A stretch of DNA of 64,000 bases from Escherichia phage Ecwhy_1. The notes below the pieces were generated by a model. It did no database searches. It was not told the DNA's origin and saw only the letters and a list, made by a program, of their open reading frames with translations. The translations under genes were made by a program, and so were the position numbers. How positions within the stretch are numbered: the first letter of the stretch is position 1; each line of letters opens with the position of its first letter. This document shows, piece by piece, positions 7,261-56,332 of this stretch. The DNA is taken from the sequence record MH791411.1; one strand, 5' to 3'.

Positions 7261-7322
7261 TTTTTCAATGTCCGTTGTCATTTTACAATATACATTATAT
7301 CACTAGGATGTATTATGTCCCG

Positions 7323-7736
7323 TTACATGTATACCTTTTTCAAATCCTTGGAACAACGGTCAAAAATTGTGTTGATGAATTCGACATCCTCTTTGATATT
7401 GGAGTCTATAGCATCATTCTCGTTTCTTGTTGTGTTCCTGTATTTGTGTTCAGGGTGATTGTATACCACCTTGACTACATTATTTAGGTCTACAAAAAAT
7501 GACGATTTTTGCGTATAGGAAGCCTGAAGCTTGATGAGTTTACCATCGTTTTGTAGATTAGTCTTGTGAATTAGTTCTTCAATACCATCTAAATGGCTAT
7601 AGCTATCCTGTTCTTTGACGAATGTAACAGTTACCAGTACTGACTTCTCATCTCCAAAGTCAGAGATATTTTTAACAGCACTGATGATTTCTAAGTTTGA
7701 AAAATCTAATTCTTTTAGCATTACAAATATTTCCAC
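7323..7736 (-). CDS. hypothetical protein
   Basis: Track ORF, 137 aa. Confidence 0.5.
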   Translation of the reverse strand: MEIFVMLKELDFSNLEIISAVKNISDFGDEKSVLVTVTFVKEQDSYSHLDGIEELIHKTNLQNDGKLIKLQASYTQKSSFFVDLNNVVKVVYNHPEHKYRNTTRNENDAIDSNIKEDVEFINTIFDRCSKDLKKVYM

Positions 7737-23963: not shown

Positions 23964-24586
23964 AAGTCTAAGTCTATACCCTTTTCAAATGATTTCTCTA
24001 GAACCCAAAGTTTACATTCTTCACTCTCCAAATGCATCTTTGCCTCTTTCTGTTGTTCTATTGTACAAGACTTTATAAATTCACGCAAGGCTTCTATTGT
24101 ACTTTTTATATTTTTTATGTCTTCCAGAATTGTTTCTTTGGCTTCAGCATCAATTACAGATGAACTCCACCCGTGACGTTCTTCCCAAATTGTTTTTGTT
24201 GAATTGTAAATTGATGATGTAGAAATGACTGCATGGACCTTATTAAACGTATCGTCTGCTTCTTGTTGGGTGTAATCACCATAAGTGTTTAGCACATTTT
24301 TGTATAGTTCATCAATTGCCTCATCATAAGTATCACCACCGCAATCTAACTCATAATCATGTGCTTGTACCCATTCATCATCTTGCTCAACGTACATAGG
24401 TGAGATGAATTCTACCCAAAATTGTGTCTTTGTATTCAGAGCTTTAAATGATTCAATGCGGTTTGTGATTGGACACACATCATGTGGTTCGATATCAATC
24501 CTTGGGGGAACCATATCTCCGTTGATGAATTTAGGATGGCCCATAATCCACCAGTACTTTTCAGATGTAGTCATTGTAATCTCCAA
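23960..24586 (-). CDS. hypothetical acidic protein
   Basis: Track ORF, 208 aa. Confidence 0.5.
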   Translation of the reverse strand: MEITMTTSEKYWWIMGHPKFINGDMVPPRIDIEPHDVCPITNRIESFKALNTKTQFWVEFISPMYVEQDDEWVQAHDYELDCGGDTYDEAIDELYKNVLNTYGDYTQQEADDTFNKVHAVISTSSIYNSTKTIWEERHGWSSSVIDAEAKETILEDIKNIKSTIEALREFIKSCTIEQQKEAKMHLESEECKLWVLEKSFEKGIDLDL

Positions 24587-24619
24587 ATAAAAAGTACTGC
24601 CACTATAACAGTACTGATA

Positions 24620-24979
24620 TTAAATGTAACGTTTCTTTTTATAATCATACCCTACTTCTTTGTAAAAGTCAAACAAAGAAGCATGGGTAAACGTAGGTAA
24701 CAGATCATATGGGTGCTGATAGTTCGCAATACCAACAACTGCCAGCATTGATTCAGCCGTTCTGGAATTTTCACTATCCCATTCATCTAAACGCCACAGT
24801 GAACAAAGAACTTCACGTTCGTGTTGCTTACCAAGAAAGAATTCAGCTTCACGGTCACGAAATGCACCTACGCTGATAGTACTTTTGTACCAGTCTTTCT
24901 CACCATAAGCTGGCATACGGATAATGTGTTTTTCTTGAGCTTCACCAAAGCGATGAAGAAATGCCACATAATCACTCAT
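24620..24979 (-). CDS. hypothetical protein
   Basis: Track ORF, 119 aa. Confidence 0.5.
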   Translation of the reverse strand: MSDYVAFLHRFGEAQEKHIIRMPAYGEKDWYKSTISVGAFRDREAEFFLGKQHEREVLCSLWRLDEWDSENSRTAESMLAVVGIANYQHPYDLLPTFTHASLFDFYKEVGYDYKKKRYI

Positions 24980-25146
24980 AACTTATAACCCATTACTGGT
25001 TTTGAATAATCAGGTTCATAAAACTTTTCAGTACTGAACCCTCTGAAATTACCACGACCTGGCTTCGGACAAGCCATCCCTTCTACACCGTGCTTACCCT
25101 GAACCTTTCCGCAGTTTTTGCATTTGTATCCAATAACTTCTTTCAT
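24976..25146 (-). CDS. small zinc-ribbon-like protein
   Basis: 56-codon ORF not in track (below length cut-off): MKEVIGYKCKNCGKVQGKHGVEGMACPKPG; stop overlaps next start as ATGA. Confidence 0.35.
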   Translation of the reverse strand: MKEVIGYKCKNCGKVQGKHGVEGMACPKPGRGNFRGFSTEKFYEPDYSKPVMGYKL

Positions 25147-25391
25147 TGTGCATCCTTTGGAATAGTGTTAAGGCGTGTACGGTTTACAATCTTCCTGCAC
25201 ATGAGATTAAGATCTTGCCCATGACGCATCTCATGGCAAGCATACAATGTACCATCATAGTTAAGTTTAGTCAAATTCTGGCGAATGAACTCTGCATCAG
25301 CCTCCTGAACTTTAGGTGCACAGCCACAGAGAGTAATGGACACAAATATTGTTAATGTAATGAATATATTTTTCATGATATTTTTTCTCAT
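25143..25391 (-). CDS. putative lipoprotein
   Basis: Signal peptide ending ITLCGC (lipobox-like), 82 aa. Confidence 0.45.
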   Translation of the reverse strand: MRKNIMKNIFITLTIFVSITLCGCAPKVQEADAEFIRQNLTKLNYDGTLYACHEMRHGQDLNLMCRKIVNRTRLNTIPKDAQ

Positions 25392-26359
25392 TTTGGGCTA
25401 TAACCACTTTTAATTTTAGAAATTACTTTCTTCTCGAAGAACTTACGTGCTTCTTCAATAGTTTTGAATTCTTCACCATCTGTAGTACTGGTTTTACCAA
25501 TAGCACCATACTCAATAATTACTTCACACACTGGAGCATTCAATTCAATATTATAGAATTTGTTCGAAGAACCGTGAACATATTCCAAATGTACATTATC
25601 AGGAATGTTCTGCACATAATCATAGTTCTTGAAGATAATATCAATCATATTTTCTTCACCGCGATCAGGAAATAGTTCAGTATTATTCAGTACTAAACGC
25701 TGTGCAGCACGGAACATATCAAAATATTGTTCACCTTTTTTCAGTTCTTTTGTATCAGAACAGAAATGACCATAGTATTCTACATAATCATTCCAAGGAT
25801 AAATTCCTTCATCAGCAGTTTCAAAAGCGTAAGTTTCATCTTGTGGAACTTTAAAACCACGAGTTTTTGGATGAGAAATTAAGCACAGTGAAATATTATG
25901 ACCGATATCTGAATCATCAGTAATACTACCACCAACCATATGAACAACATTTTTAATACGTTCAAAATCTACATCTTCAATTTCATGATACATTAAATGT
26001 TCTTCAATATTACTTACTAGTAATGAATTACCATTTCCTGCATCGAATTCAAAAATGAAAAGTTCTACACAATCTTCTTCTTTCATTTCAATAGTATCAC
26101 TGAGTTTAATATACTCATTTTTTACTTGTTCAATATTTTCATGAGAACCAAAACTATAACGAGAACTGATATAACTACTACCATCCAACCATCCCATATC
26201 CCAAGGTTCTTCTGACATGTATTCGGTGCTATAGAAATCAGTCAAATCATCTCTCTGAGTACAAACCGTAAGAGAACGAACATTATTAAGACCTTGAACT
26301 TCAAGATTCAGTACTGTAGTGTTGCCGATTTTTTGTTCAGAAATAATTTTAGTTTTCAT
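25388..26359 (-). CDS. WGR-domain protein
   Basis: C-terminal ~60 aa KFYNIELNAPVCEVIIEYGAIGKT...KIKSGY fits the WGR fold pattern (W-G-R replaced by Y-G-A); N-terminal 260 aa unassigned. Confidence 0.45.
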   Translation of the reverse strand: MKTKIISEQKIGNTTVLNLEVQGLNNVRSLTVCTQRDDLTDFYSTEYMSEEPWDMGWLDGSSYISSRYSFGSHENIEQVKNEYIKLSDTIEMKEEDCVELFIFEFDAGNGNSLLVSNIEEHLMYHEIEDVDFERIKNVVHMVGGSITDDSDIGHNISLCLISHPKTRGFKVPQDETYAFETADEGIYPWNDYVEYYGHFCSDTKELKKGEQYFDMFRAAQRLVLNNTELFPDRGEENMIDIIFKNYDYVQNIPDNVHLEYVHGSSNKFYNIELNAPVCEVIIEYGAIGKTSTTDGEEFKTIEEARKFFEKKVISKIKSGYSPK

Positions 26360-26490
26360 TTAAAATACCTATTGAAATGATTTACGCCATTTGACTAGTT
26401 TAACATTCATGTAAGTAAGGAACTCACGTTCCATCTCTTCTGGACTCATATTATCGCATTGCAAAGCGAACATGTCAAGTGCACATCATC

Positions 26491-27138
26491 CTACTTTTTT
26501 GATTTATGTAATGCAATTTGTACTCGCGTAATGAACTCACGCTCTACTTCATCTGAATTAACACCATCATATTGTGTTTTGAATAGTTCCATAGCTTTGA
26601 TAGCCATCTGAACTGAAAGATCAGCAATACTTTCAGTACTGGTACTTTCAAATACATTTTTGAGGCTTAGTTCACCATCATCAATACATTCTTTTGGTTT
26701 GTTGATTTCTGGTACTTGGATGTATCGCAATGCTTTGTATTCTGCTTTGGTCAGATTCCCAGTCCATCTTGGTTCATTGAACAAGTCATGCATTGTAATG
26801 CCAGCTTCACCCATTAGGTGTACTAACTCTTCATTTCGGCGAATATGCTTTTCTTCATCTTTGAAATTTTTGTAAGTGTAAGCACAACGCATGATAGCCA
26901 AACGTACTTCACCACTTTTAGTAATTGTATACGTATGAATTGCATTATCGTAGTCACTTTCCCATTGTTGACCCGCATATTCGTACCAAAGGTCATTTGT
27001 CTCCCAACGGAGCATTTTACCTTCTAGTAGCTCGTCAATCATTTTAGCCATGTTACCATGATATTCACAACTGGTAATATTAAATCCACCATTGTACTTT
27101 GCAAGGTACAGAATCTTTTCTTGTGATACATTTTTCAT
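26491..27138 (-). CDS. hypothetical protein
   Basis: Track ORF, 215 aa; its 3' end is duplicated as a degenerate fragment at 26360..26490. Confidence 0.5.
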   Translation of the reverse strand: MKNVSQEKILYLAKYNGGFNITSCEYHGNMAKMIDELLEGKMLRWETNDLWYEYAGQQWESDYDNAIHTYTITKSGEVRLAIMRCAYTYKNFKDEEKHIRRNEELVHLMGEAGITMHDLFNEPRWTGNLTKAEYKALRYIQVPEINKPKECIDDGELSLKNVFESTSTESIADLSVQMAIKAMELFKTQYDGVNSDEVEREFITRVQIALHKSKK

Positions 27139-27476
27139 TACATGTAATCCTTGATGTATTTTAGCAGTTTAGATTTCTCTTCGGTACTTAATGATTTCTT
27201 GTTCATCAAGTGTTTCATTTCTTGACGTTCAATTTCTTCACATCTTTTAGATTCAGCTTCAATTCGTGTATGGTATTCTTCGTCAGTTTCTTCTCTGGTC
27301 CAAATTACATTGTATCCATCGAAACCACCGTAACCACCGTCTGGTGAAAGACTAATGTATCCCTTGTACTCTGAACGGTACTTATTAAGAGTGTCAATAA
27401 AGGTATCAATGCCACACTGTTCAATTTCAATATAACCAATCACGACAGCAACTTCAATTTTGTTCATAAAGTTCAC
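27138..27476 (-). CDS. hypothetical protein
   Basis: Track ORF, 112 aa. Confidence 0.5.
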   Translation of the reverse strand: MNFMNKIEVAVVIGYIEIEQCGIDTFIDTLNKYRSEYKGYISLSPDGGYGGFDGYNVIWTREETDEEYHTRIEAESKRCEEIERQEMKHLMNKKSLSTEEKSKLLKYIKDYM

Positions 27477-27494
27477 CTATAAAAATAGGGAGCA

Positions 27495-28052
27495 TTAGCT
27501 CCCTTTGTATTGATGTTTACGTTTAGTACTGTATTTCCAGCCAGTACTGTGTCTTGTTCTGATATCATCCCAATACGATGGTAGTGAACGCATCTTACGT
27601 CTTCCACGTATATCCGGTTCCCCCTCATCCTTCAGTACTGCACAAGCCATACGACGCTCTTGTTGGGTCTTAGGACGTTTGTATCTGGAGTGGTTATGTT
27701 TGTACATATACGAACGCTTGTGTCGCCATTCAGTGTCACGAGCATTTCGTTTATGATCCCAGTACTCATTATAGAGTATCATGTATTCACCCATAAGTAA
27801 ATCAGGAGATACAAGTAATCCTTTTTCAGTACAAAGATAATAACCTACGAACTTTTCTGGATACATTTCGTAATAGAAACGGTTCTTCCAAAATGTTTCA
27901 CGATTCTTTTTGTTGAATTCAGCTAAATCGAATTTCATCTTACTGTGGAAACGGTCTATACCGTCATGTTCCGCAATGTACTCTAACAGATTATCAATAA
28001 TCTCAACTTTACCTGAATCATGGTACAACGTAAATGTTTGGTCAAAAAACAT
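27495..28052 (-). CDS. hypothetical protein with basic C-terminus
   Basis: Track ORF, 185 aa. Confidence 0.5.
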   Translation of the reverse strand: MFFDQTFTLYHDSGKVEIIDNLLEYIAEHDGIDRFHSKMKFDLAEFNKKNRETFWKNRFYYEMYPEKFVGYYLCTEKGLLVSPDLLMGEYMILYNEYWDHKRNARDTEWRHKRSYMYKHNHSRYKRPKTQQERRMACAVLKDEGEPDIRGRRKMRSLPSYWDDIRTRHSTGWKYSTKRKHQYKGS

Positions 28053-28532: not shown

Positions 28533-29972
28533 TTACATATTTTCTTCAGCAAATTCTGCCAGTGGTGAACGAACGACACCTTCTAGTTCGATTACACGAC
28601 AACCGTCCCAGTTCTTGAACTTCTCGGTAACATAAGTTAGACCGCTGTTAACTGGACTAATGAATTTAGAGTCAATCTGGCTCAAGTTGCCCATAATAAC
28701 CACTTTACAGTTCATTCCTGCACGAGTCAGGATTGTTTTAGCCTGAGCAGGAGTAATGTTCTGGAATTCATCCACTACTAGGATAGTGTTTGTGAAAGAA
28801 CGCCCACGAACGAAGTTTAGTGCTTTGAACTGGATAACATTACGTTTCATGATTTCTTCGATACTGCCTTGTGGGTTAGCATCATCTTTGTGTAGGAATT
28901 CCAACGCATCAATGGCAGCTCCACAGAATGGAATCACCTTCTCTGCCTCAGAACCTGGCAAGAAACCAATGTCTTCGAATTGGGAATCTTGTGTTTTGGA
29001 GAAGATGATACGGTCGTATTTTTTCTTCTCTAGTACTAGCTCCAGTGCAGTAGCAATGGTGATCAATGTTTTACCAGTACCTGCGGAACCCAACAGTACT
29101 GTTAGATGAACATCAGGATCTAGGATACTGTTGATTGCTAGTGCTTGTTGAATATTCTTAGCCTTAATATCCCACACTTTAGCACGTAGAGCAACAGATT
29201 GTCCAATATCTTGGAATACAAGAATATCTTCTGGTGTTAAAGTACCATCATCTTCTTCAATTGCAGATTGGCCTTCGTACACAAATAGAACATCAGCATT
29301 ATCATATAGGTAATCACCGATGCAAATATTTTGTGGCATGATATGTTCAATCAAGCTTTTTGGAATGTAGTGATACAAACGGCGACCAACTTGTTCAGAT
29401 TGGATAGACACATCAGTTAGATTGCTATACACATCCCAAAAATCTAGGTCGAGGTGATGTTGACCAATGTGAATCAAATCACTATCACCAATCACGATAT
29501 CATGACGATAATCTTGAACTTCCACCCCGTAGCTTAGAGCCTTGATACGCATATTGATATCACGGGTAACCAGTACTGAATCAGTTGCTAATGCTACTAA
29601 AATGATTTTATCATCTGGTACTGTGCTTTTTAGAAGAGTTTGAACTTTCTCTTCGTTACCAGAAGTACGAATTAGTGCTTCAGCTTCTTCGCTTGTAATA
29701 ACAAACAATTTGCTTTCAGGACTCATATTAGTATGAACATCAGCAATATTAACACCAGTACTACTAATTTCTTCATGTGATGCATCAGAAAGGATAGCTT
29801 CAATGTTACGGATTGCAACACGAGCATCACGGGAAACATCCACATTACGACTTTTGATTGAATCCAATTCTTCAAGTACTGTGAACGGTAGAATGATAGC
29901 TGCTCCATCAAAAGCAATGGTAGCATTTGGATCAGATAGTAGTACGTTTGTGTCAATTGTATATTTTTTCAT
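28533..29972 (-). CDS. phoH: PhoH-like ATPase with N-terminal PIN domain
   Basis: N-terminal PIN-like MKKYTIDTNVLL...EELD; Walker A LLGSAGTGKTLITIA; 479 aa. Confidence 0.85.
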   Translation of the reverse strand: MKKYTIDTNVLLSDPNATIAFDGAAIILPFTVLEELDSIKSRNVDVSRDARVAIRNIEAILSDASHEEISSTGVNIADVHTNMSPESKLFVITSEEAEALIRTSGNEEKVQTLLKSTVPDDKIILVALATDSVLVTRDINMRIKALSYGVEVQDYRHDIVIGDSDLIHIGQHHLDLDFWDVYSNLTDVSIQSEQVGRRLYHYIPKSLIEHIMPQNICIGDYLYDNADVLFVYEGQSAIEEDDGTLTPEDILVFQDIGQSVALRAKVWDIKAKNIQQALAINSILDPDVHLTVLLGSAGTGKTLITIATALELVLEKKKYDRIIFSKTQDSQFEDIGFLPGSEAEKVIPFCGAAIDALEFLHKDDANPQGSIEEIMKRNVIQFKALNFVRGRSFTNTILVVDEFQNITPAQAKTILTRAGMNCKVVIMGNLSQIDSKFISPVNSGLTYVTEKFKNWDGCRVIELEGVVRSPLAEFAEENM

Positions 29973-30033: not shown

Positions 30034-30336
30034 TTACATGCTCGGTTCGTATTCAACATAACATCTTGAACCACGAGCCTTTTCCTCCCAGCATTCCTGG
30101 TAAACTAGTTGACCAATTGATACTGGATCTCTTGATAACCCATTACGAACTTCACCAGTACTGGTTTTATAAGTAAATGAGCATTTATTTTCATTACATT
30201 GACCTAATCCTGTTACAGTCGCTGTATTGTAATGAATATTATAACGTTTAGTGTTCTCATGATATGAACTGAACCACAGAACACCTATACCTAATAGCGT
30301 TGTGCAAATAAGACTCTTGATATGTGTTGAAATCAT
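30034..30336 (-). CDS. secreted or membrane-anchored small protein
   Basis: N-terminal hydrophobic segment LICTTLLGIGVLWF, four Cys, 100 aa. Confidence 0.45.
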   Translation of the reverse strand: MISTHIKSLICTTLLGIGVLWFSSYHENTKRYNIHYNTATVTGLGQCNENKCSFTYKTSTGEVRNGLSRDPVSIGQLVYQECWEEKARGSRCYVEYEPSM

Positions 30337-30653
30337 AGTGCATTAAATCCATTAGTTAAGTAAGTTTCAATATTAACTTTCCCTACTGGATTACTACTAT
30401 GTACATAGTATTTAAATGGTTCTTTAATATTATGCTCAAACATATAATCAATTAGAAATTTGGCAAAAGTGTATCCAGTTTTCTCATCTGTACTCAAGTC
30501 ACCCAAGTCATGGTCAAATGAGACAAATGCTGGAATTCCATTTTTGATTACGTATTCACATGCACTTTCGTAGTCACGACACAATACCATCTCTTGGTCA
30601 GGATAATATTTTTGATAATCACGAATATCATCCAAGAACATTGAGTACGACAT
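30333..30653 (-). CDS. hypothetical protein
   Basis: Track ORF, 106 aa; 4-nt overlaps on both sides place it in the Sir2-Nudix operon. Confidence 0.5.
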   Translation of the reverse strand: MSYSMFLDDIRDYQKYYPDQEMVLCRDYESACEYVIKNGIPAFVSFDHDLGDLSTDEKTGYTFAKFLIDYMFEHNIKEPFKYYVHSSNPVGKVNIETYLTNGFNAL

Positions 30654-30662
30654 TTTAAACTC

Positions 30663-31214
30663 CTATAGATAGCTGATTAGTAAGTTTTCTTTTTGTACAA
30701 GATACTCTAATTCTTGTTTCGCAGTTCCGATGAAGTTCTGTGTCATAAGATTATTATATCCTGCTTCTCGATTTTGTCCCTTCGAATAACGAGAGATGTG
30801 ACATAAATTTACACCAGCCACCTCTGCACTAGCATGTTTGCCATATGCATAATTATCACGAAGTTTTTTAAGTTCAGCATAAGTCATTTCATAACTATAG
30901 CTATGTGAGTGACCCTCTGGAAACAATTCAAGTGATTTTAATGGAGACAGGCGACTTTTGTCAATGATATAGTTCATTTCTTCTTGTACTTCACGTTGTA
31001 ACGCATCTTCTAATGACTTATCAGTACTTTCAACTGTTCCACCACATGCACCCAACAATCCATCCCAACGCACTTGTAGGAGTACTAAGTTAACCACTGG
31101 AATATCATTTAGTTCATAACCAGAGTATGGGGTACATTCTTTTGCATAAAAGAAACAGAATACAAAATTTGCACGTTTCCCCAGTTGTCCCAGTGGTACT
31201 TCAGCTTTACTCAT
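30663..31214 (-). CDS. Nudix hydrolase
   Basis: GGTVESTDKSLEDALQREVQEEMNYI approximates the Nudix box (MutT GGKIEMGETPEQAVVRELQEEVGI) with one inserted residue. Confidence 0.6.
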   Translation of the reverse strand: MSKAEVPLGQLGKRANFVFCFFYAKECTPYSGYELNDIPVVNLVLLQVRWDGLLGACGGTVESTDKSLEDALQREVQEEMNYIIDKSRLSPLKSLELFPEGHSHSYSYEMTYAELKKLRDNYAYGKHASAEVAGVNLCHISRYSKGQNREAGYNNLMTQNFIGTAKQELEYLVQKENLLISYL

Positions 31215-31963
31215 CGCATTCGTTCCTTAATTATAGTTTCAACCTGTGGAATTGCTTTCGTCGCAGGTTTGATGACCTTCTCATTAAAAAGAAAATCATT
31301 ATCATTTTTTCGGATGTTAACATTTACACTATAGCATGGAAGTGCACCAGCTAGTCTGGACCATACCAGTACTGTATCACTACTTCCAATAACTACAACT
31401 GTATCATTTTCTGTGAGACTTTTCAACACTTCATTTCGTTCTTCATAAATGGGGAGACGTACCCCATCAACGTAGCGATGATACTCACCAATCATCACTA
31501 CATTTGGTTTTGCAAAAACATCAGCTTTAGGGATATATGGTTCATAACCACAATTAATGACATTGTAATCATCAGTATTAATAGAAAAGTTCTCAATTAC
31601 TTCACATAAATTGCCGTGTAGTTTGAGTTCGGTTCCACCAATTCTAGTATATAGATCATCCATATTAGAAGTCATGTGTAAAAAACAATCACCATACAAA
31701 TCTTCTAATGATTTAATAAAGTAATGCATTTCATTAGGATGACATTCACCTAATTTTACACGCAATGTATTATAAAATGAATGAACTATATGATACTTAG
31801 AACTAAGTCGTGCAATGTTACAAACATCATTAATTTTGAAATTGTCCCACAACCCATCATCAAAGCGGAATGGTTCCATCCCGCTCTCAACTGAAAGACC
31901 TGCCCCTGAAATTATAAGTAATCTTTTGTTCCCAGCATTTTGTATAAATTTATCTGATATCAC
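31211..31963 (-). CDS. Sir2-family NAD-dependent deacylase / ADP-ribosyltransferase-like protein
   Basis: ISGAGLSVESGMEPFR (GAGIS.ESGIP.FR motif), TSNMDDL, LHGNL catalytic-His motif, PNVVMIGE, VVVIGSSDTV; Zn-binding Cys tetrad degenerate (two Cys only). Confidence 0.65.
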   Translation of the reverse strand: MISDKFIQNAGNKRLLIISGAGLSVESGMEPFRFDDGLWDNFKINDVCNIARLSSKYHIVHSFYNTLRVKLGECHPNEMHYFIKSLEDLYGDCFLHMTSNMDDLYTRIGGTELKLHGNLCEVIENFSINTDDYNVINCGYEPYIPKADVFAKPNVVMIGEYHRYVDGVRLPIYEERNEVLKSLTENDTVVVIGSSDTVLVWSRLAGALPCYSVNVNIRKNDNDFLFNEKVIKPATKAIPQVETIIKERMR

Positions 31964-32195: not shown

Positions 32196-32789
32196 TCAGT
32201 ATTTCAAAATATCAAACTCTGGACTAACACTTGTTACATTATCACTGACAATTTTGAAAATAGACTCAACACGTTCATGTAACTGAACATTGGTTTCTTC
32301 TTGAACTTCAATATACGCTGACATGGATGCAATTGCATGATAAGTCCCACTTCCGACAGCAGTAATTTGTGTTTTAGGTTGCAGTACTGAAAAGTCTTCT
32401 TGAACTTCATAAATCGTATGATTATGAAGAATAATGAACTGACCACCACCAACGTCTTGTGATGCATCACGAGCACCCCATTCATCTTTAAACATTTGAC
32501 GAATGATAGGAATAACTTTCAGTACTAGATACTGTGAAAAGGTTTCCCCTGCAACTTGTTCTGGTAGAGTTAGGTTGTAATTCAACAACTGTCCCATGCG
32601 GAACGAGGTAGTATACCCCAACGCCATTACTTCTTTAGTGCGAGAAAGACCATCCTCATTGAGTTTAATGAACTCTTTCTCAAATACTTTAGGCTCAGTT
32701 TGAACTGCTTTAGTGAAACCATTGCTTCCTAATTTATCACCAGCGATGAAGGAAGATGTGCCATTTGTGTGAGCGATAATACAAGTCAT
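32196..32789 (-). CDS. HslV / proteasome beta-subunit-like Ntn hydrolase
   Basis: Start set to ATG at 32789 preceded by AAGGAG RBS with 7-nt spacer; product begins MTCIIAHTNGTSSFIAGDKLGSNG (HslV [25 protein letters not shown]) and has ITAVGSGTYHAIASMSAY (HslV IAIGSGGPYAQAAARAL). Confidence 0.55.
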   Translation of the reverse strand: MTCIIAHTNGTSSFIAGDKLGSNGFTKAVQTEPKVFEKEFIKLNEDGLSRTKEVMALGYTTSFRMGQLLNYNLTLPEQVAGETFSQYLVLKVIPIIRQMFKDEWGARDASQDVGGGQFIILHNHTIYEVQEDFSVLQPKTQITAVGSGTYHAIASMSAYIEVQEETNVQLHERVESIFKIVSDNVTSVSPEFDILKY

Positions 32790-55798: not shown

Positions 55799-56332
55799 TT
55801 ATTTCCTCATGTATTTTATTACATCTTCAAATAGTTTAGTTTTCAGTGCATCATCATTACCAGGTAGAAAAGTACTGAAGCTATTAAAATCTTCATTCTT
55901 GGCAAACTCACGCATCTGTGTGGAACTGTAGCGACTTATATTTCGGTCAATTCCAGCTTGAACTGCCTTGATTGAACAAAAATTATATAACTTCCCATTG
56001 TACGTGTCAAGTGTTTTTTGGAATGGTTCAAGTCTATCTGAACCACATATGAAAAGAACATCTAAGTACTTTCCATCCAGTTCTCTCATTATATCAAACA
56101 GATTATCTTCTGTATAGATATTTTCTTGTACAGATGGGTAAAATCCTTCTGTATAGTACATTTTCAGTTCAGGAGGTAATGGGTTTTTGATGGCATCAGT
56201 ACTGGTACTAAGGAATATTTTCAAATCAGCATTGTACTGTTCTTGTAGTGCTTGAGCTTTTTCAAACACTAAACCATGACCTCGATGTACAGGGTTAATT
56301 CTTCCGAATGTCACTACGCATGTTTCTTTCAT
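55799..56332 (-). CDS. nicotinamide/nicotinate mononucleotide adenylyltransferase-like nucleotidyltransferase
   Basis: FGRINPVHRGH (cytidylyltransferase-type H-x-G-H motif) and ISRYSSTQMRE (S-x-T-x-x-R region); 177 aa. Confidence 0.6.
   Translation of the reverse strand: MKETCVVTFGRINPVHRGHGLVFEKAQALQEQYNADLKIFLSTSTDAIKNPLPPELKMYYTEGFYPSVQENIYTEDNLFDIMRELDGKYLDVLFICGSDRLEPFQKTLDTYNGKLYNFCSIKAVQAGIDRNISRYSSTQMREFAKNEDFNSFSTFLPGNDDALKTKLFEDVIKYMRK

Follow-up and report, generated by a model that had tools for sequence, protein, structure and literature searches.

The window, meaning here the whole 64,000-nucleotide stretch of Escherichia phage Ecwhy_1 DNA that was analysed (MH791411.1), is 100% identical to Escherichia jumbo phage fEgEco12 (PP777464.1, 374.7 kb; genus Asteriusvirus, PBECO4/121Q-like). 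The gene originally called at positions 25388–26359 from the letters alone is a real one, confirmed as a complete minus-strand ORF with an ATG start, and it corresponds to fEgEco12 g228 (XBS49310.1), which was deposited under the name “WGR domain-containing protein”. Since the same label is also found in the sister genomes PBECO4, phAPEC6, UB, BF17, slurp01, and Sharanji, the WGR call for this gene is not new at the level of annotation; the papers on fEgEco12 and on phAPEC6 do not mention g228 or its ortholog. Overall, g228 encodes a protein of a known and annotated kind, whose architecture is a new variant, and the observations that are new concern the alternative cassettes found at its slot, a promoter of its own, relatives that consist of the WGR module only, and a divergence trough over the N-terminal domain. 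The locus comprises the following features:

25388–26359, minus strand: g228, the WGR-protein ORF, ATG start, 323 aa plus stop codon, complete
25850–26359, minus strand: residues 1–170, orphan acidic alpha/beta domain, a three-strand beta-meander followed by a ferredoxin-like beta-alpha-beta-beta-alpha-beta core
25604–25849, minus strand: residues 171–252, acidic helical region with five helices, linking the alpha/beta domain to the WGR
25391–25603, minus strand: residues 253–323, WGR domain (Pfam match to residues 256–322)
25143–25391, minus strand: g229, small lipoprotein-like gene, its ATG overlapping the g228 stop codon (ATGA, 25388–25391)
26369–26473, minus strand: g227, annotated 34-aa ORF, 68–74% identical to the C-terminal 34 aa of a 283–297-aa upstream gene in related phages
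26450–26478, minus strand: near-consensus sigma-70-type promoter (TTGACA, 17-nt spacer, TG, GATAAT; 11/12 matches, extended -10)
25326–26489, no strand assigned: extent of the cassette relative to phage WPEC3, 1164 bp, holding the promoter/g227, the WGR gene, and the 5' end of g229

The C-terminal segment, which the original prediction had read as a WGR domain, was recovered as such by profile searches and by fold comparison. Pfam WGR (PF05406) scored 41.6 bits on residues 256–322 (gathering cutoff 22; E = 1.3e-10; model positions 3–74 of 79), and a precomputed PF05406 hit was present in 27 of 27 homologs. Among PDB sequences, a profile built exclusively from the C-terminal segments of the family retrieved solved WGR domains, namely 2ra8_A (E = 1.3e-8), PARP3 (3.7e-5), and PARP2 (2.4e-3). 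The protein was modelled with AlphaFold2 using 28 homologs as input (mean pLDDT 90.9, pTM 0.90), and in the fold comparison the domain displayed the antiparallel sheet and packed C-terminal helix of the WGR fold and could be superimposed on solved WGR domains.

At the position of the central W-G-R motif, the window protein carries Y284-G285-A286. Across an alignment of 28 sequences, Gly285 is invariant, Tyr replaces Trp in all sequences except one (27/28, with Trp in the remaining one), and Ala or Gly takes the place of Arg in 28 of 28. The motif of the closest solved WGR, 2ra8, likewise departs from the canonical one and reads YGK, and a literal W-G-R motif is therefore not universal in the WGR family. 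Along with Gly285, the invariant positions in this part of the alignment are K267, Y269, F298, A304, F307, K310, K315, S318, G319, and Y320, and the family also conserves a basic C-terminal helix (KKxxSKxKSGY) in a module of roughly neutral charge (-3 to +3 across the family). In PARP1, residue R591 links domains by bridging to Zn1 and HD. Activation requires this bridge and DNA affinity does not, whereas the equivalent Arg in PARP2 and PARP3 does add to DNA affinity (PMC4081085). Given the departure at this position, a PARP-style, Arg-mediated coupling cannot be assumed for the phage WGR. An aromatic residue without the bridging Arg would fit a WGR in a protein with no catalytic domain to be switched on, and by analogy with the PARPs, DNA binding by the phage module is plausible.

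The phage protein differs from the closest known WGR proteins. Unlike PARP1, PARP2, and PARP3 (PF05406; PDB 4dqy, 2eoc, 6f1k), it includes no PARP regulatory or catalytic domain, its WGR is C-terminal behind an unrelated orphan module, and its near-neutral WGR reads Y-G-A/G, without the Arg that bridges Zn1 and HD in PARP1. In the bacterial structural-genomics protein Q64V53 from Bacteroides fragilis (PDB 2ra8), the WGR is N-terminal instead, and the ~290 residues that follow it show no similarity to the phage N-domain. MolR/YehI-type WGR-DUF4132 proteins and Deinococcus DR2173 are likewise non-PARP prokaryotic WGR proteins and have been tied to DNA-damage regulons (PMC8533742), but these proteins are large and cellular and carry their WGR at the N-terminus, and the phage family lacks DUF4132. 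The accessory protein of type XIII retrons combines a WGR-like module with HEAT/ARM repeats in an msDNA-based system (PMC7736814); it differs from the phage protein in being part of host defence, in its length of ~970 aa, and in having its WGR at the N-terminus along with a repeat domain, and the PADLOC WGR_XIII model matches the WGR segment only of the phage protein, and weakly. Finally, a WGR-like module also stands alone in the 64-aa CJ488_0932 of the Campylobacter mobile element CJIE3 (PMC8285248), which parallels, by its layout, the 74–79-aa solo WGRs described below, whereas the window protein has an extra 250-residue N-terminal module.

For this N-terminal module, the original prediction had offered no assignment, and the same picture emerged from every resource searched. 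In scans of the whole protein, the N-terminal 250 residues gave no significant match in Pfam, PHROGs, NCBIfam, or PADLOC, and none was obtained against the PDB. When 15 N-domain sequences were scanned singly against Pfam, they returned isolated noise only, and Foldseek of the N-domain against BFVD gave nothing significant (best E = 0.05, TM 0.29). Noise matches to ThsB (E = 0.028), SidE_mART (E = 0.055, in one member), and Spond_N were dismissed, and carbon-nitrogen hydrolase was rejected as a relative of the N-domain, being a lone PDB sequence-profile match with E = 1.4. When 1.84 billion representative proteins were searched exhaustively with an HMM of the N-domain, eight matched, seven of which had the same N-domain and WGR layout; the eighth, a 3455-aa fibronectin-repeat protein (P0030), was a spurious repeat match. 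Iterating the profile with the distant members added led again to proteins with both N-domain and WGR, and to nothing else. Modelled on its own, the N-terminal region reached a pLDDT of 88.5 and a pTM of 0.89 (AlphaFold2). It is acidic in every family member (net charge of the N-terminal 252 residues -23 to -35, pI ~4.1–4.6), and in the window protein, with a net charge of -28 overall, residues 1–170 contribute -17 and residues 171–252 contribute -10. Seven N-domain residues are invariant across the extended family (G60, G71, N117, G144, D148, D149, and P164), and this set suggests a ligand-binding or metal-binding patch. We consider the N-terminal module a candidate new domain family.

The combination of N-domain and WGR is identical in all 27 close homologs and in 5 distant ones, and every context of the family that could be examined was that of a phage. 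Among deposited phage records, 17 encode the protein, comprising 16 E. coli Asteriusvirus records and Erwinia phage Hallingskeid (39% identity). Close homologs are located on Rak2-like or Asteriusvirus-like jumbo-phage contigs, in which the WGR gene follows genes for Sir2, a Nudt16-like NUDIX, cREC_REC, and PIN-PhoH, and precedes those for dCMP deaminase and NrdD; this common order is general genome collinearity of the lineage and does not represent a dedicated module. In the distant clade, the WGR gene is found among ORFan genes that match PHROG families, and no adjacent partner common to this clade and the close homologs was found. The genes adjoining g228 itself contain no Pfam domains, neither the WGR module nor the N-domain has paralogs in the window or the fetched loci, and the window contains no tRNAs.

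The g228 slot is occupied in Asteriusvirus-like genomes by one of two alternative cassettes, with about half of these genomes carrying a 59-aa ORF instead of the WGR gene. In WPEC3, a 239-bp unrelated segment replaces window positions 25326–26489 between flanks that are 99.8–100% identical, and 121Q displays the same short allele. The 59-aa protein has a signal peptide and a lipobox-like sequence (MKILLVLIAVLMVLSC...), and the corresponding lipoprotein-like ORF is located at L006 1881–2060 in WPEC3 and at L016 4257–4436 in 121Q (gene 485). The signal-peptide-coding 5' end of g229 is swapped along with the cassette, and the ATGA overlap suggests that translation of g228 and g229 may be coupled. 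An extra 126-aa gene, gp335c, stands between the WGR gene and the g229-like gene in phAPEC6 (L011 2469–2849) and is missing from fEgEco12, which points once more to a mosaic hotspot at this slot.

The short ORF g227 matches the C-terminal end of the upstream gene of related phages. It is therefore probably no gene in its own right but a remnant of recombination, the 3' end of a g226-like gene from a donor phage, and it probably serves now as promoter and leader for the WGR gene. The g227 ATG falls within the -35 hexamer of the WGR promoter. In Hallingskeid and on contigs L009 and L010, the counterpart of g226 (26491–27138, minus strand, 215 aa) plus g227 (34 aa) is a single gene of 283–297 aa.

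The WGR promoter is located ~90 nt upstream of the g228 start codon, just inside the cassette boundary; it is the best sigma-70-like site of its region, and its hexamers are identical in phAPEC6. Over the whole window, sigma-70 sites with at least 11/12 matches occur 16 times on the coding strand and once on the opposite one, where shuffled sequences lead one to expect ~3.6 over both strands. This bias towards the coding strand argues for real host-RNA-polymerase promoters and for early expression of g228, and going by the promoter-consensus match alone, g228 is probably an early gene. Near-consensus sites on the minus strand are found, for example, at 56010, 55287, 53743, 47204, 39130, 37552, 30964, 26478, 13203, and 7887. 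The distribution of these sites suggests that many transcription units in this region may be read by the host RNA polymerase. The phAPEC6 ortholog gp336c, which is 98.5% identical to g228, is absent from the paper that gives the 62 phAPEC6 virion proteins found by mass spectrometry, and the g228 product is probably located outside the virion.

A profile search with the WGR part only revealed stand-alone WGR proteins of 74–110 aa, 45–72% identical to the WGR module of the window. On contig L012, a 79-aa WGR occupies the exact slot of the 319-aa protein found in L009 and Hallingskeid: it is 85% identical to residues 241–319 of the L009 protein, starts at an internal Met, and is flanked by orthologous genes (83%, 82%, and 49%). 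The same arrangement was seen on L013, where the solo WGR is nearest to a different clade. At this slot, the solo WGRs of L012 and L013 measure 74–79 aa, and no remnant of the N-domain was detected by tblastn at either location. Comparing solo and fused WGR forms, dN/dS ratios of 0.19 and ~0.14 were obtained, which indicates that the solo WGR genes are under purifying selection. By best hit and in a neighbour-joining tree, the four solo WGRs of phage-like type are placed within different fused clades, and the N-domain has therefore been lost more than once; two of these cases were verified at the DNA level, while the other two (P0035 and P0037) are on short contigs, on which truncated gene calls are possible. 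A more distant solo WGR of 110 aa (P0038, GCA_048222815.1; L014 746–1078) is ~44% identical to the window WGR. Its gene adjoins a Glyco_transf_61 gene on a short contig, and the neighbour-joining tree places the protein outside the phage clades.

Between L009 and Hallingskeid, the N-domain forms a sharp divergence trough that follows the domain boundary. Nucleotide identity is 49–82% over the N-domain part, as opposed to 88–99% in the flanks and the WGR part. The N-domain has a dS of 1.22 and a dN/dS of 0.30, and dS is 0.21 in the WGR. Judging from these patterns, exchange with a diverged allele would be the best account of the trough. The same pair of loci displays a second trough inside the g226-like gene (43–59% identity; L009 ~7320–7525) and an indel adjoining the Cpn10 gene (L009 ~6585), and the remaining locus is 85–100% identical. 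We interpret the WGR as the conserved, autonomous core, most likely a binding module, and the N-domain as a variable add-on.

The reading that we favour, with a probability of roughly 40%, is that the g228 product would be a modular binding protein, with its WGR on a nucleic-acid feature and its N-module directed to a variable partner or ligand. Here, an optional gene of Asteriusvirus-type jumbo phages would be expressed early and would yield a product that stays outside the virion. Its WGR would dock onto a DNA end, a nick, or a structured nucleic acid, by analogy with PARP1–3, in which the aromatic residue of the motif touches sugars at the DNA 5' end, and this docking would take place without the allosteric Arg bridge by which PARPs switch on their catalytic domain. 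The acidic alpha/beta domain and the helical region would then be a lineage-restricted, fast-diverging, and dispensable accessory, which would join the WGR target to a variable protein partner or ligand via the invariant N117 / G144-x3-D148-D149 / P164 patch, and the protein as a whole might have a role in phage–host conflict or in DNA transactions. Support for nucleic-acid docking comes only from the fold, the aromatic residue kept in the motif, and the basic helix at the C-terminus. Against binding, the WGR is near neutral and the protein has a net charge of -28, which is atypical for a DNA-binding protein, and the motif Arg linked to DNA affinity in PARP2 and PARP3 is missing in every member. 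WGR domains are well understood solely as the DNA-break-sensing part of PARP enzymes, and the phage family represents a tractable minimal system, in which natural variants with the N-domain, without the N-domain, and without the cassette occur in near-identical backgrounds. Comparing these variants could reveal the target of a stand-alone WGR, and whether its use by jumbo phages lies in DNA transactions or in countering host defences.

The invariant polar residues of the N-domain could equally mark a catalytic site, in which case the N-domain would be a new metal-dependent enzyme acting on nucleic acids or nucleotides, and the WGR would deliver it to DNA ends or lesions. N117 and then G144-x3-D148-D149 are placed at the C-terminal ends of beta-strands in the model, with D151, K167, and K170 nearby, the model is compact and confident (pTM 0.90), and the region is rich in nucleotide-metabolism genes, including those for dCMP deaminase, NrdD, and DNA ligase. 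On this evidence, a targeted enzyme is credible, if unlikely.

A counter-defence decoy or inhibitor is likewise credible, if unlikely, and several lines of evidence point in that direction. Such a protein would use its WGR to compete with or bind a host WGR-dependent, DNA-end- or msDNA-sensing system, for which MolR/YehI-type SOS-regulon proteins, DR2173-like proteins, and the type XIII retron accessory protein are candidates, and its N-domain would track host variation. The gene belongs to an accessory cassette that about half of the genus carries and has its own host-type promoter, and the trough and recurrent loss of the N-domain are as expected of an arms-race module. Host WGR proteins are known in DNA-damage regulons (PMC8533742) and in type XIII retrons (PMC7736814), PADLOC WGR_XIII gives a weak match (E = 0.044), and a cREC_REC gene is nearby in the window, as is an Acb1-family gene in relatives. 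However, the PADLOC match reflects the shared domain only, the literature searched gave no link between the WGR domain and anti-defence, and the high N-domain dS points to recombination with a diverged allele, with a dN/dS of 0.30 that does not indicate positive selection. It is more doubtful still that the phage WGR would sense DNA 5' ends, nicks, or msDNA-like nucleic acids, or block them, as a means against end-sensing or WGR-dependent defence, with an N-domain of new fold diversifying in an arms race; if true, this would provide the first function for a non-PARP WGR and a new class of phage counter-defence.

The presence of Sir2 and Nudix genes in the window had also been taken as a hint of ADP-ribose-related biology, and this part of the original prediction found no support. 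The idea that the protein acts in ADP-ribose or NAD biology with these two genes, for instance by reading ADP-ribosylated targets, draws on the association of WGR domains with PARP catalytic domains in eukaryotes and some bacteria (PMC8120803), and the two genes are both genuine (Sir2, E = 1.4e-19; Nudt16-like NUDIX, E = 1.4e-18) and located ~4.3 kb upstream of g228, in an order that is kept in relatives at 43–52% identity. However, neither Pfam nor fold comparison identified a PARP/ART, macro, or PARG module in the g228 protein; it does not belong to the PARP/ARTD proteins, which have an ART catalytic and a helical regulatory domain beside the WGR, and it lacks the Arg through which the WGR of PARPs is coupled to their catalytic region. 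Moreover, the WGR of PARPs binds DNA, not ADP-ribose (PMC4081085). The genes also occur independently: Sir2 homologs were detected in 968 phage records and the WGR protein in 17, while the Sir2–NUDIX pair is found in 34 Asteriusvirus-like records, i.e., about twice as many related genomes as the WGR gene, and around half of these 34 have no WGR gene (including 121Q, WPEC5, Turkey3, CMSTMSU, and the SD-series). In the distant clade, there is no Sir2 or NUDIX within 8 kb of the WGR gene. Co-occurrence and conserved adjacency thus do not identify a functional module with Sir2 and the Nudt16-like NUDIX, and since the protein has no ART, macro, or PARG module and the Sir2 and NUDIX genes occur independently of it, the ADP-ribose suggestion is not supported and must be considered very improbable.

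Least probable is a DNA mimic, in which the acidic N-terminal region, as strongly charged in every member as noted above, would imitate DNA and titrate host DNA-binding proteins such as restriction enzymes: with a net charge per residue of -0.087 over its full length (10th among the 85 window ORFs, ~1.1 SD below the window mean) and -0.107 in the N-domain alone, the protein has a charge density that is unremarkable for this phage, which disfavours this reading, and the protein shows no structural match to known mimics and does not qualify as one of the Ocr/ArdA type. Classical mimics such as Ocr have a far more extreme charge density than the window protein.

Several neighbouring genes displayed features beyond their deposited annotation. 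The gene g220 (30333–30653, minus strand), deposited as hypothetical and found directly downstream of Sir2 and the Nudt16-like NUDIX, encodes a clear cREC_REC domain (“cyclic-phosphate processing receiver”, PF20274, E = 1.9e-23). In the relative L009, an Acb1-family gene (PF23474; positions 1–350) is located just upstream of Sir2; the window gene upstream of Sir2 (32196–32789) has no Acb1 match. Sir2, NUDIX, and cREC_REC, together with Acb1 in the relative, look like a small nucleotide-signal island, possibly involved in counter-defence. The Sir2–NUDIX segment of fEgEco12 (30663–31963) is ~78% identical at the nucleotide level to PBECO4, phAPEC6, and 121Q, and 99% identical to WPEC5, Turkey3, and vB_Ec-M-J. 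The WGR protein follows a different pattern, with 98.5% identity to PBECO4 and phAPEC6, and these unlike patterns for the Sir2–NUDIX segment and the 24000–28000 region indicate that neighbouring segments have different histories. In the “PhoH-like protein” g222 (28533–29972, minus strand), a PIN_4 nuclease domain at the N-terminus (E = 4.3e-20) is fused to a PhoH ATPase (E = 8.5e-45), and this fusion is kept in all related contigs. In the distant clade, an adenylosuccinate-synthase homolog adjoins the WGR gene (L008 10112–11341 and L003 11121–12350, both minus strand) and matches phrog_1211 “2-aminooxy adenylosuccinate synthetase” (PurZ-like, E = 2e-54), a neighbour which may be a marker of phages with modified adenine in their DNA.
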